DNA of 24,219 nucleotides from a virus (taxonomy: Duplodnaviria; Caudoviricetes), in the IMG/VR virus record IMGVR_UViG_3300010403_000051, positions 1 to 24,219 of that record. The stretch is one strand, 5' to 3'. The notes under the pieces were generated by a model. That model saw only the letters and a list, made by a program, of their open reading frames with translations. It was not told the DNA's origin and made no database searches. Position 1 is the stretch's first letter. Each line of letters starts with the position of its first letter. This document shows positions 1,390 to 12,455 of the stretch, in pieces. Position numbers and translations under genes: made by a program.

Positions 1390-1833
1390 TCACGCGGCTT
1401 CCCATCGCAGTTTCGTTTGCGTCGGATGCTTGTCCACTCGCGGCCGACTGGGCTTGTTCCATGATCCGCCCCCAGCCTCACCGACGCACCGATACCCAGC
1501 TCCTCGGAGGCTTGCGCCGCTCTCTGACGGCAGCGTGTAGGTCACGAGCCGCTTATAGCCAAGCGCGAATGCCGCACGCCTCGCGGCCCCGTAGAGCGCC
1601 GAACACGCGTCCTTACTGCCGTCTGTCGCCACGCGCGTAATCTCCAGTGTCAGCCCGTCGTCGAGATGCCGCGCCACGGGACGGCCGATGATGGCGACGC
1701 CGCGAATCTCCCGCGTGACGTCAGCGACGCCAAGCGAGAACCGATGGCCAACGACGCGCCCATGATGCCGATGGTGCTGCTGCACGAAGGCGTTGGCTTC
1801 GGCCAGCGGCAGCGGCACCACGTCGTATTTCAC
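1390..1833 (-). CDS. XF1762-family protein (GNAT-like, Mom-related)
   Basis: EANAFVQQHHRHH, GVAIIGRPVARHLDDGLTLEITRVATDG, ACSALYGAARRAA, ESGASLRGAG. GTG at 1833 is favoured because it overlaps the stop of the upstream mini-ORF; 1908 is an alternative start. Confidence 0.8.
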   Translation of the reverse strand: MKYDVVPLPLAEANAFVQQHHRHHGRVVGHRFSLGVADVTREIRGVAIIGRPVARHLDDGLTLEITRVATDGSKDACSALYGAARRAAFALGYKRLVTYTLPSESGASLRGAGYRCVGEAGGGSWNKPSRPRVDKHPTQTKLRWEAA

Positions 1834-1940
1834 AGACAATCCCCACTCGCCGACGTCGCCATGGCGAAACTGGACATCGGCTGCAATTGACTCGCCCTCG
1901 CTTGACACGTCGCCCGATCAGAGACGTATGCGCTGTTCAT
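1830..1940 (-). CDS. Small 36-aa ORF linking the endonuclease and XF1762 genes
   Basis: ATGA overlap with the upstream stop (1937-1940) and GTGA overlap with the downstream start (1830-1833); sequence uninformative. Confidence 0.35.
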   Translation of the reverse strand: MNSAYVSDRATCQARASQLQPMSSFAMATSASGDCL

Positions 1941-2368
1941 ACGATGCCCTTAATCGCCTGCTCGACGAGCGTCAACGCCGAGCCATCCGCGATCTGCTTC
2001 GGCGTCACCCGCAGCACTTTCCACCCGGCGAGCGTCGCCGTGTTGTACTTCTCCATGTCGTTGACCATCCCCGCGCCTCGTGAATGCCGCCCCGCCACGA
2101 ACACGCCCCCTTCCACCTCGAGCGCGACTGGCGGTTCGACCTTCGGCCACGCGTAATCGAATCGCCAGCGCCGCGGAGGGGCAAACCTGTACTCCGCAGT
2201 CGGCTCCGGCAAGGCGGCCAGCCGGCATTGAATCGCCAACGGGACTGCGGCTCTTTTCATTTCACGGGCCTGATGAGAGTCTCCCTCCGCCGTCTCCCCT
2301 GAGTCGGCCGGACCTGACACCCACTGCTCATGGCCGTCCTTGTTCTCCCACCAGGCCCAACTTGTCAC
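1937..2368 (-). CDS. PD-(D/E)XK endonuclease (DUF559/Vsr-like phage family)
   Basis: EYRFAPPRRWRFDYAWP...ALEVEGG...GRH...DMEKYNTA...GWKVLRVT; GTGA-coupled start. Confidence 0.85.
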   Translation of the reverse strand: MTSWAWWENKDGHEQWVSGPADSGETAEGDSHQAREMKRAAVPLAIQCRLAALPEPTAEYRFAPPRRWRFDYAWPKVEPPVALEVEGGVFVAGRHSRGAGMVNDMEKYNTATLAGWKVLRVTPKQIADGSALTLVEQAIKGIV

Positions 2369-2703
2369 GACGCGAGGTCATCGAGCGATGTGATGATCGG
2401 CTTGCCGATCGACACGGCGTACTCTCGTTCCTTGAGCGCACCGGCACTCGTCTCCCAGCGCGGCAACATCAGGACGTGGGTGCAGCGATCGATCACCGCG
2501 AGGTCGTAGTCGAGCCAGCGATCCCACGGCACATCCGACCACGCGGACGGAAAGGCACCCGACAGATGCGGGCAGAACACTGGGATCCCGCGCTTCAGCG
2601 CATCGAGAAACACACGCAGACCAGCGGCGACGTTCTCTTCGACGGTGAAGCCATGCTTCGCCGTCATCGGCCCGGAGAGGTAGACGAATACGTCTCGCCT
2701 CAC
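2365..2703 (-). CDS. DUF4406/DUF1937-like protein (nucleoside 2-deoxyribosyltransferase-like fold)
   Basis: VYLSGPMT, VFCPH, DLAVIDRCTHVLMLPRWETSAGALKEREYA...GKPI; GTG start overlaps the upstream TGA. Confidence 0.8.
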   Translation of the reverse strand: MRRDVFVYLSGPMTAKHGFTVEENVAAGLRVFLDALKRGIPVFCPHLSGAFPSAWSDVPWDRWLDYDLAVIDRCTHVLMLPRWETSAGALKEREYAVSIGKPIITSLDDLAS

Positions 2704-3215
2704 GTGCCCACCTTCTCCGGTGGCTGCGCGTACTTCGCATTTGCCTCGCGGCGTCGCCGCAGCGTTGGGTTCCACGATCGACAGGCACAGGGTTCGACCC
2801 ATTCGTGCGCCGCGTGCTCGAAGTCTCGGCCGCACGGCTCGACCGGACACGCCCGCGGGTGCCAGCCGCTGTCCCCGCACGTCGCACAGTCGAACCGCCA
2901 GAGCCTGGTAATCGGGATCCGGATGTCGATCCCGCTCGCCGGATTAGTCAGGACGAGCTCGCGTCCGCCGCCGACCAGGTCTTCGACGTGCGGCTCGGGC
3001 AGCGGCAGGGGCAGCGTGTTGACGGCGTCGCAATCGGCGCGCAACTCCGCCGGCGTCGGAAACCACTGCCGGGTCCGGATGGCGTGGTTCACGGCGCGGG
3101 AAAACAGATCGTCCGGCACGTCTTGGAGCGCCGCGAAATACTCGACCACGTCACCAGGGACGCCGCGCAGCACGCGCAACCGGTCGATCTGCTGGTCGCA
3201 ATGGGCCGCCGTCAC
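2700..3215 (-). CDS. Putative helicase loader/inhibitor-like replication protein with C-terminal Zn-binding region
   Basis: Directly after the initiator; AVNHAIRTRQWFPTPAELR resembles the G39P-type FPxPAEL motif; CATCGDSGW...CAC at the C-terminus. Confidence 0.6.
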   Translation of the reverse strand: MTAAHCDQQIDRLRVLRGVPGDVVEYFAALQDVPDDLFSRAVNHAIRTRQWFPTPAELRADCDAVNTLPLPLPEPHVEDLVGGGRELVLTNPASGIDIRIPITRLWRFDCATCGDSGWHPRACPVEPCGRDFEHAAHEWVEPCACRSWNPTLRRRREANAKYAQPPEKVGT

Positions 3216-10030: not shown

Positions 10031-10594
10031 TTAGGCCGCCGCGTGCTTCTGGGCCAGCTGCCGCCGCTCTCCGCGCAGGTAGAGCGAGACAAATCCTTTC
10101 GATACGCCGAGGTGCGTGGCGATGGCGACCTGTGTCGCCCCGCCGGCATAGAGGGCGTCGATCTCACGCAACTGGGCGGCGGACAACTTCTGACCGCGCG
10201 GGCGCGGGACGTGGAGCCGCCCCTTCGCCGCCGCGTCCTTCATGTTGTCGGCCTGCGTGCCGAGAAACAGGTGCGATGGATTGACGCAGATAGGGTTGTC
10301 GCAGCGATGCAGGACGCTCATCCCGTCAGGGATCGCGCCATGCGTCAACAGGTAGGCGTAACGATGGGTGTATTCCGGCCCGCGGTAACGACGTCCGTCG
10401 CGGGCGGTGCGTGTTACATTGATGCCGCCATAGCCGTCTGGCCCGTTCTTCGATCCGAGCCAGGCCCAGCAGTCGTCACGGCCGACGCCGCGGTCCACCC
10501 TGGACCAGAATCGACGCGCGTCCGCTGTCGTGAAATCAGACGATGTTTCACGGTTTGTGACGTTAGTGGAACATCTACTATACGACGTTGGCAT
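10031..10594 (-). CDS. HNH_3 endonuclease with C-terminal HTH (homing-endonuclease-like)
   Basis: RFWSRVD..CWAW..GYG..HRYAY..VLHRCDNPICVNPSHLFLGTQADNMKD; TQVAIATHLGVSKGFVS. Confidence 0.9.
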   Translation of the reverse strand: MPTSYSRCSTNVTNRETSSDFTTADARRFWSRVDRGVGRDDCWAWLGSKNGPDGYGGINVTRTARDGRRYRGPEYTHRYAYLLTHGAIPDGMSVLHRCDNPICVNPSHLFLGTQADNMKDAAAKGRLHVPRPRGQKLSAAQLREIDALYAGGATQVAIATHLGVSKGFVSLYLRGERRQLAQKHAAA

Positions 10595-10889
10595 TTTCCC
10601 GAACCATTCTGCGCCGAGCCTTGGTCGTGCGCCTGAAAGTCTCTTGTATTCGTGAAATCCGCGCGTCATCCCAGCGGGTCAAGACGTCCATGTCCACGCC
10701 GGTCACCATGTGGAGCGCGTACGCGTTGACGCGTGAGCATCGCCGCGAGCGGCTCAGGATCATTGAGAGCAAGGACTGGGAAATGACATGGCCGGTCTGC
10801 GCCTTGACCAGCGCCAGGAGCGTAAGACCGTTTGTGCCGGTCCGCTCCATCCAATCTTGCAGTGAGGTATAGGGTCGTCTTCGCTTCAC
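10578..10889 (-). CDS. Cro-like HTH regulator
   Basis: First gene divergent from the repressor; LQDWM...ISQSLLSMILSRSRRCS...ALHMVTGV. Confidence 0.7.
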   Translation of the reverse strand: MKRRRPYTSLQDWMERTGTNGLTLLALVKAQTGHVISQSLLSMILSRSRRCSRVNAYALHMVTGVDMDVLTRWDDARISRIQETFRRTTKARRRMVRENANVV

Positions 10890-10992: not shown

Positions 10993-11541
10993 ATGACCGC
11001 CTCCGACGCGACGGCCAAAGAGCGAGTCAGCCAACGGATCAAGGAACGCCTCGACGAGTTAGGCATGAACGCCCGAGCCTTCGCGCGGAAGATGGGCTAC
11101 AAGGACGGCTGGATCAACGCGATCAAGGATGGGCGTAATGCCCTGCAGTTAGAAGACTTGGACCGTGCGGCGTTTCACCTGCGCACGACCGCCGGCGACC
11201 TGATACGGCGGGGCGACGAGCTATACGATTTACGGCCGTCAGAGGCGCGCCTCGTTCGCGCACTGCGCCTGTTGCCCCCGGTGATTCAGGATTACCTGGT
11301 CACCCTCACCGAGTATTTGGTCGGCGTGCTACCCGAGGAGGTCGGACTTTTAGAGGAGTTCCGGGACCTGGGAGACGACCAGCAGGCGCAGATCCGCCGG
11401 TGGGTCCATGTGATGCACATTGCCGGTCCGCGTGGAGCGCACGCGCCAGAAGCGCCAAACCTTGACGATCTGTCGAGCCTAGTCCGCGGAAGTGGGCCAA
11501 CAACTCACGCTCCAGCACGCGGGCGGAAGCGTCCGAAGTAA
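10993..11541 (+). CDS. Phage immunity repressor, XRE/CI-like HTH, no S24 peptidase domain
   Basis: RIKERLDELGMNARAFARKMGYKDGWINAIKDGRNAL HTH; divergent from cro. C-terminus has two helical repeats. Alternative GTG start at 10954. Confidence 0.85.
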   Translation: MTASDATAKERVSQRIKERLDELGMNARAFARKMGYKDGWINAIKDGRNALQLEDLDRAAFHLRTTAGDLIRRGDELYDLRPSEARLVRALRLLPPVIQDYLVTLTEYLVGVLPEEVGLLEEFRDLGDDQQAQIRRWVHVMHIAGPRGAHAPEAPNLDDLSSLVRGSGPTTHAPARGRKRPK

Positions 11542-11578
11542 CCGTCGCCGTCAGCGTGAACGGGAGCACGCGCGCCAT
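11306..11578 (-). CDS. Antisense ORF overlapping the repressor 3' end; putative anti-repressor / repressor partner
   Basis: MARVLPF start with upstream GAGGA (alternative ATG at 11590); ERELLAHFRGLG matches the repressor's EVGLLEEFRDLG; has its own sigma70-like promoter. Confidence 0.55.
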   Translation of the reverse strand: MARVLPFTLTATVTSDASARVLERELLAHFRGLGSTDRQGLALLARALHADRQCASHGPTGGSAPAGRLPGPGTPLKVRPPRVARRPNTR

Positions 11579-11624
11579 GCGTAATTTCATCCTCGTGTGG
11601 GGCCGAGGTCCGTACGGCGCGGGC

Positions 11625-11654
11625 ATACTAGTGGGCCCACTTTACTGAGCGCAA
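11625..11654 (-). promoter_or_regulatory. Leftward promoter for the antisense ORF with a palindromic operator
   Basis: Minus strand TTGCGC-18 nt-TAGTAT; perfect 12-bp palindrome AGTGGGCCCACT at 11630-11641. Confidence 0.5.
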
Positions 11655-11753: not shown

Positions 11754-12455
11754 ATGGCGAAATTCATCCCCTTGGCCGTCGCCCTGTTCCTTGCCGGCTG
11801 CAACGCCGAGCAACTAACACCGGTCGCCCCGTCCGCGACGACACCGGGAGCGCCCTCCACGGGGCCGCGCCTGCCCCAATTCACCGCCTTTGACGTGACG
11901 CTGCGCAACGGCACCACCTTCGCGATTGCCGATAGCGCCTGGCTGGGCTTCCTCTCCGTCCTGCCGCACGAAGGCGCGCTCATCACGACGCCGAGCCGCG
12001 TGCTGGTGGACTGCGGCAACGGCACCGTGATCAATCTGGGCGCCGGGATCGGCTCCGATATCCGCTTCAGTTGTCGGTGGGCCACCGCCGGAGATGTCGT
12101 CGTGCGGGCGGTGGTCGAAGCGCAGAACGGCGTGACGACCAGCGCGCAATTGCCCCTGCACGTCGAGCCGCCGATCGTCGTGACGGATCTCGTCTCGGTG
12201 GATATTGCCGTGGCGTCAGCCGTGCCGGAAGGCGGCGTGCAACGGTGGACGTTCACGCCCACGACCGTCGGCCCCGTCTCCTCGATCACGTGGGACTTCG
12301 GCGATGGCAGCGCCGGGCTCATCAACGGTCCCGCCTCGGCGGTGACGCATCACTACCAGCAGAATGGCGTCTACGTCGTGACGGCGACGGCAAAACTTCA
12401 GGATGGCAGCACGCGCGCCGCCGGCCGCGTCGAGATTCTCGTCTCCTCGCTGTGA
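11754..12455 (+). CDS. Lipoprotein with C-terminal PKD domain (moron / lysogenic conversion candidate)
   Basis: Signal peptide with lipobox LAGC (Cys16), Pro/Thr linker, Ig-like region, PKD motif ITWDFGDG...VTHHYQQNGVYVVT. Confidence 0.85.
   Translation: MAKFIPLAVALFLAGCNAEQLTPVAPSATTPGAPSTGPRLPQFTAFDVTLRNGTTFAIADSAWLGFLSVLPHEGALITTPSRVLVDCGNGTVINLGAGIGSDIRFSCRWATAGDVVVRAVVEAQNGVTTSAQLPLHVEPPIVVTDLVSVDIAVASAVPEGGVQRWTFTPTTVGPVSSITWDFGDGSAGLINGPASAVTHHYQQNGVYVVTATAKLQDGSTRAAGRVEILVSSL

Follow-up and report, generated by a model that had tools for sequence, protein, structure and literature searches.

The 3′ end of a repressor-like gene of a tailed phage is overlapped, on the opposite strand, by an open reading frame (ORF) that is almost certainly a coding gene. 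Its product lacks an HTH domain and carries a helical motif that, by sequence-profile comparison, is homologous to the C-terminal repeats of the repressor itself. The product is probably an antirepressor that acts in the manner of SinI and AimX (estimated probability about 60%, by analogy with these proteins), and it would pair with a repeat of the repressor and break up the repressor oligomers. The locus lies in a 24,219-nucleotide stretch of DNA (the window), of which a preliminary description already contained the outline of this proposal. All positions given there agree with those determined here (Table 1).

Table 1. Positions of the repressor, the putative antisense gene and their neighbours in the window.
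Feature	Position	Strand	Basis and remarks
Cro-position gene (cro-like by position only)	10578..10889	-	Divergent from the repressor; heads the early operon
Promoter of the cro-position gene, TTGATC-16-TATAGT	10925-10898	-	Promoter scan; matched in L005 (3857-3932)
Repressor-like XRE/HTH gene, 182 aa	10993..11541	+	ORF; PHROG repressor/regulator matches; called gene in the protein collection
HTH domain, residues 8-71	11014..11205	+	AlphaFold helices H8-23 to H67-71, pLDDT 94-97
Helical repeat 1, two helices, residues 82-111	11236..11325	+	AlphaFold; related to repeat 2
Helical repeat 2, two helices, residues 114-144	11332..11424	+	AlphaFold; opposite the tail of the antisense gene
Repressor tail, poorly conserved	11425..11538	+	Opposite the motif of the antisense gene; missing in L010
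Putative antisense gene, 90 aa, HTH-less	11306..11578 (ATG at 11578)	-	ORF; 236-nt overlap with the repressor; no called gene
Predicted helical hairpin of the antisense protein, residues 16-31 and 35-56	11411..11533	-	AlphaFold; profile matches
Shine-Dalgarno-like GAGGATG	11588..11594	-	9 nt before the ATG at 11578
Promoter-like TTGCGC-18-TAGTAT	11625..11654 (TTGCGC 11654-11649; TAGTAT 11630-11625)	-	46 nt before the ATG
PKD-domain neighbour, lipoprotein-like N-terminus	11754..12455	+	Pfam PKD, E 1.4e-10; N-terminus read from the sequence

The record from which the window is taken belongs to a tailed phage with a GC content of 65%. The same phage is also represented by a longer record, G001, which extends from a portal gene to a terminal HNH gene. 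To the left of the repressor are replication-type genes encoding a Sak4-like annealing protein, a primosomal protein and a methylase, as judged from Pfam and PHROG matches; to its right, PHROG matches indicate tail, neck and unknown-function genes. The replication and tail blocks are separated by the leftward gene in the position of cro, the rightward repressor gene and a PKD-domain gene, which is divergent from the antisense gene. The cro-position gene has no HTH match in Pfam or PHROGs, and genes similar to it are present in the related loci L005 and L007. Only 8 nt separate the end of its −10 motif from the GTG at 10889, which suggests a nearly leaderless transcript. The gene that follows it is of the HNH type (10031-10669, Pfam HNH_3), as are, by eye, the corresponding genes of L005, L007, L011, L012 and L013; the position is unusually fixed for a homing endonuclease, and the gene is possibly a domesticated regulator. 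Downstream of the repressor and on the same strand, the window, L005 and L007 contain mutually unrelated lipoprotein-like genes, which may be superinfection-exclusion cargo. Farther away in the window (1390-2880), a Mom-like DNA modification gene and a nucleoside deoxyribosyltransferase-like gene are located beside a DNA methylase, and the head gene region of G001 includes a gene matching a PHROG labelled alpha-2,3-sialyltransferase (L019:4297-4923).

The repressor has only weak HTH matches in Pfam (HTH_26, E 0.004), and its predicted structure matches those of ClgR, SinR and lambda repressor in Foldseek. The AlphaFold model consists of the HTH domain, two helical hairpins and a low-confidence tail (pTM 0.49). 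It had been proposed that the repressor lacks an S24 self-cleavage domain and carries two helical repeats instead. Both statements hold: no S24 domain match was found in Pfam, the model is all-helical, and the two hairpins correspond to repeats that are related to each other (profile E 1.9e-7). The antisense protein is modelled by AlphaFold as one hairpin followed by a disordered tail (pTM 0.36; pLDDT 88-93 over residues 21-50). The motifs that the two proteins share are thus both predicted to be helical hairpins, and the low-complexity tail of either gene faces the motif of the other, as the preliminary description had noted.

Protein searches identify six close relatives of the repressor besides the window's own cluster, and 219 relatives at E<=0.001. 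The family loci with DNA sequence comprise ten distinct members, whose repressors are 26-60% identical to that of the window. Loci L001-L004 carry the window's repressor protein and are counted once together with it, and L005 and L006 are merged and counted once. L014, which has a generic HTH match only (E 4e-4, residues 16-64), was rejected as a family member and left out of the counts. The family loci share ancestry, and the counts and pairs derived from them are not independent. No relatives of the repressor were found in 50,697 GenBank phage records or in the genome collection scanned, and further scans of viral sequences found nothing; the Atlas neighbours come from several phyla.

In nine of the ten loci (the window, L005/6, L007, L008, L009, L011, L012, L015 and L013+L018), the same antisense phase contains a start and a motif of two helices; conservation of this kind in relatives is what the preliminary description had named as a test. 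L015 and L018 both fit this pattern, which had already been defined when they were identified. The overlap between the repressor and antisense genes ranges from 149 to 245 nt across the loci. In L013, the overlap is interrupted by a 3.5-kb insertion, on the far side of which are the antisense start, the promoter motif and the helical motif (L018). The inserted element has inverted ends and splits the repressor directly after repeat 2 (L013:3413-6507 and L018:1600-3150). By eye, it contains what we take to be a transposase-like ORF, an HTH gene and a 48-aa ORF resembling a fragment of cytochrome oxidase subunit I. The repressor of the tenth locus, L010, stops just after repeat 2, and the antisense gene and the repressor tail are both missing; no antisense-gene match was found anywhere in this record, which is rated complete. 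L010 groups with L009 (94/93), which suggests a joint loss of the gene and the tail. Since L010 keeps its repressor without the antisense gene, the gene is dispensable. The repressor frame runs on through the antisense gene, and the tail of the repressor is likely to be mostly a by-product of this.

The assignment of ATG 11578 as the start of the antisense gene is supported by a matching N-terminus in L005. An alternative start at the upstream ATG 11626 is ruled out by its overlap with the −10 motif. The preliminary description had attributed to the gene a promoter of its own, TTGCGC-18-TAGTAT, and this motif is present and conserved: the pattern TTG-17/18-TAnnnT occurs 35-46 nt before the start in six of the nine loci (the window, L005, L007, L009, L011 and L018) and at 0.38% of arbitrary positions. 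L015 contains only the −10 part of the motif, and L008 and L012 contain neither part. A generic sigma-70 scanner makes no call at TTGCGC-18-TAGTAT. Shine-Dalgarno matches of at least 5/6 precede seven of the nine starts versus a background of 3.7%, a comparison in which the starts were picked by eye, partly from the Shine-Dalgarno sites themselves. The antisense proteins of the window (11578-11558), L005, L007, L008 and L009 open with a short hydrophobic motif before the hairpin (VLPF, MLTF, LRLV, IRIV).

Sites through which the antisense promoter could be regulated were also searched for. Autoregulation by the repressor was rejected, as the promoter has no 8-mer in common with the repressor/cro intergenic region of the window. 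Six LexA-type box patterns have no match in the window, L005, L008 or L012, and a literature search on the box found nothing. CTGT-N8-ACAG, a candidate box, occurs in L007. In L009 and L011, a GTTC-N7-GTTC sequence with one mismatch lies over the −35 motif, approximately 75 nt before the antisense start, and is possibly a LexA-type box.

The antisense protein has no database relatives, whether searched singly or as a four-row alignment. It belongs to no Pfam or PHROG family and has no PDB sequence match and no Foldseek match, and its best Atlas score of 0.84 is a lead only. Its exact sequence is missing from a collection of 15 billion proteins because the gene lies under the tail of the repressor. 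Among 79-codon stretches of 15 other genes of the window, 8.3% are open in the same antisense phase by chance. From the window alone, the antisense match is not above chance; with the relatives included, it is above chance.

Further evidence for the antisense gene comes from the pattern of conservation within the overlap. In all seven loci measured, repeat 2 and the antisense motif are 55-59 codons apart, so the register in which the loci are compared was not chosen at will. In the antisense-motif region, which comprises 28 codons and lies entirely inside the repressor ORF, the identity among the seven loci is 35% in the antisense frame versus 16% in the sense frame, and all 21 pairs, which share ancestry, favour the antisense frame in BLOSUM score. 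Base identities at the three antisense codon positions are 0.48, 0.49 and 0.33, with the third position being the most variable, and different codons are used at 136 of the 205 identical residues. Because the second codon position of the repressor is the most variable one in this region, the conservation of the antisense frame is not a shadow of the selection on the repressor. In the region of repressor repeat 2, the identity is 33% in the sense frame versus 16% in the antisense frame, 20 of the 21 pairs favour the sense frame, and the identity at the third position is 0.32. Conservation at the level of the protein, which had been deduced from codon usage in the window, is therefore borne out, with the antisense codons rather than the bases being under selection.

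The likeness between the two proteins can be seen in the segments ERELLAHFRGLG of the antisense protein (11512-11477) and EVGLLEEFRDLG of the repressor (11338-11373). As described previously, they are identical at 7 of 12 residues and use different codons at 5 of these 7. An inverted repeat at the DNA level as the source of this likeness is ruled out, since only 19 of the 36 bases are identical. A pairwise BLASTP comparison of the antisense protein, in the 106-aa form starting at the upstream ATG, with the repressor is not significant (E=3.4). A profile built from the repressor repeats only gives the window's antisense protein a higher score than 500 of 500 shuffled sequences, 495 of 495 off-frame sequences and 189 of 189 segments of real proteins, and it finds the same register in all seven antisense proteins. 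The shuffled sequences that reach the score of the real one number 0, 30, 0, 10, 17 and 32 of 500 for the other six proteins and 10 of 500 for L015. The weaker members L007 and L012 (30 and 32 of 500) score -12.6 and -12.2, barely above the -13.7 that the best antisense stretch of L010, the locus lacking the gene, attains, and profiles of single repeats miss several of the antisense proteins. In hhalign, the antisense motif matches repeat 2 with an E of 6.6e-7 and repeat 1 with an E of 6.9e-5, versus 0.19 for the HTH control. The match of the full-length antisense profile to the repressor has a probability of 49% only. The description of the ORF as an HTH-less protein with a motif related to the C-terminal repeats is sustained by the hhalign match to repeat 2.

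It is extremely unlikely that the antisense frame just shadows the repressor sequence and gives rise to no protein. Such a shadow would explain that the frame was never called as a gene and has no database relatives, and open frames of this length do arise by chance; however, the antisense protein is more conserved than the overlapping repressor sequence in every pair compared, the second codon position of the repressor is the most variable there, and the conserved promoter motif and the starts lie outside the repressor gene. The conserved convergent promoter motif, together with the extent of the overlaps, would also suit a locus whose main regulator is the antisense transcript, acting by RNA pairing or by the collision of polymerases, with a subordinate role for the protein. 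The preliminary description had invoked antisense RNA as a second layer of control. This part of the proposal is unsupported, as the length of the overlap follows from the first stop of the frame. A dominant role of the RNA is very unlikely: the selection tracks antisense codons and not base identity, the transcript has no Rfam match, and no terminator for it was found inside the repressor gene. In the study of AimX, recoding of the overlap was without effect in that system, and mutants with the start changed to a stop lost function (bioRxiv 10.1101/2025.11.23.689978).

The remaining alternatives accept the gene and assign another role to its product. The protein could be directed at a different host or phage protein, with its likeness to the repeats reflecting functionless ancestry or the convergence of amphipathic hairpins. 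The motif is short, the full-length profile match is of limited probability, the weaker members score near background, and the N-terminal segments differ among the loci. Even so, a different target is quite unlikely, because the gene keeps its position relative to the repressor even where the identity of the repressors falls to 26%, none of the 189 segments of real proteins matches the profile score of the window's protein, and the gene and the repressor tail were lost together in L010. The protein could also bind the repeats and tune repression, as a co-repressor, as a stabiliser or by retargeting similar to that of SlrA/SlrR, or it could act mainly on co-resident repressors of the family. 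The evidence from the repressor-repeat profile and hhalign is the same for such roles as for an antirepressor. The presence of two repeats would allow one to be occupied with the dimers kept, SinR pairs also with SlrR (PMC3163267), and cross-acting antirepressors are known (PMC3121763). Nevertheless, these roles are unlikely: the two precedents that were tested, SinI and AimX, are HTH-less partners that prevent the repressor from binding DNA, and the antisense protein of the window closely resembles repeat 2 of its cognate repressor.

The proposed SinI-like or AimX-like antirepressor can be compared with several known systems. AimX of the AimX-AimC-AimL module of Bacillus arbitrium phages is a small, convergent and partly overlapping antirepressor that binds the C-terminal domain of its repressor directly and thereby prevents oligomerisation and DNA binding; tests of its antisense RNA showed little effect (bioRxiv 10.1101/2025.11.23.689978). 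The AimX/AimC pair, missed in the preliminary description, is a closer precedent than SinI/SinR. Like AimX, which has 29-80 aa, the antisense gene encodes a small protein that is predicted to be helical, and it is convergent on, and in the case of AimX sometimes overlaps, a repressor composed of an HTH and a helical oligomerisation domain, a role that the repeats of the window's repressor would share. Further likenesses are the divergent cro-like gene upstream, which is cro-like by position only in the window, and the omission of the small gene from annotations. Unlike in the AimX locus, aimR and aimP are not upstream and co-oriented, and the upstream neighbour is the divergent PKD-domain gene. 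No match to the AimR/AimP receptor was found with Pfam and PHROGs, which were used without an AimR model, among the scanned ORFs, including the next co-oriented genes. The overlap of AimX in phi106 is 30 bp, whereas the overlaps of 149-245 nt include the whole functional motif inside the repressor ORF. In sequence, the antisense protein is homologous to a repeat of its own repressor, a relation that the sections consulted do not describe for AimX. Unlike AimC, as presented there, the repressor has two tandem repeats, and no integrase was found.

[quoted passage not shown] The SinR/SinI entry 1b0n is third in the Foldseek search with the repressor model, a rank that is probably driven by the HTH. 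The SinI-SinR pair is described as a chromosomal biofilm switch, whereas the pair reported here is convergent, overlapping and located in a phage. None of the seven antisense proteins has a Pfam SinI match, and SinI is not among the PDB sequence or Foldseek matches. In the LexA-controlled Gifsy GfoA/GfhA system, a small binding protein inactivates a non-cleavable phage repressor (PMC3121763), which is the role proposed for the antisense protein, and the repressor of the window likewise has no S24 self-cleavage domain. By analogy, the antisense gene probably works like SinI/SinR and AimX/AimC but is a member of neither system. Three points set it apart from the known systems: how deeply the two genes interlock, a partner that is homologous to the tandem repeats of the repressor, and the fact that an integrase is apparently lacking. 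The literature searched, with partial coverage of subscription journals and of the AimX supplements, describes no repressor-homologous antirepressor inside the ORF of its repressor.

By analogy with SinI/SinR and AimX/AimC, the helical repeats would oligomerise the repressor, the antisense protein would take the place of one repressor subunit, and the promoter of the cro-position gene and the early replication operon would then be released. The term induction control, which had been applied to this switch, presumes lysogeny. Searches for a tyrosine integrase, a resolvase, a recombinase and ParA, five in all, gave no match in any of the five records covered by each (from G001-G006), of which two are rated complete and the others are fragments; the searches use a loose first look and can miss divergent enzymes. 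Because the phages have no detected integrase or ParA, induction is inferred only. All of G001-G006 carry a repressor/cro-type module despite the lack of integrase and ParA matches. The dormant state of these phages, if there is one, may be non-integrated or may depend on a divergent enzyme.

The mechanism itself has precedent, which limits the surprise of the finding. The overlap is a clean natural example of two homologous motifs that lie on opposite strands and are under reciprocal selection. It also suggests a simple rule for sequence mining: where the tail of an HTH repressor is long and unconserved, an antisense partner may be present. A more far-reaching and rather doubtful possibility is that the repressor and antirepressor homologs form a self-interlocked pair, with each pairing motif placed inside the dispensable tail of the other. 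They would constitute an inseparable, co-evolving titration switch of the SinI/SinR type that operates without cleavage in an undescribed family of tailed phages with no recognisable integrase or ParA, and that possibly governs non-integrated dormancy. As an antirepressor, the product of the antisense gene would show that the AimX/SinI design also occurs outside Bacillus and outside arbitrium systems, and it would explain how a family of non-cleavable repressors could be switched off.
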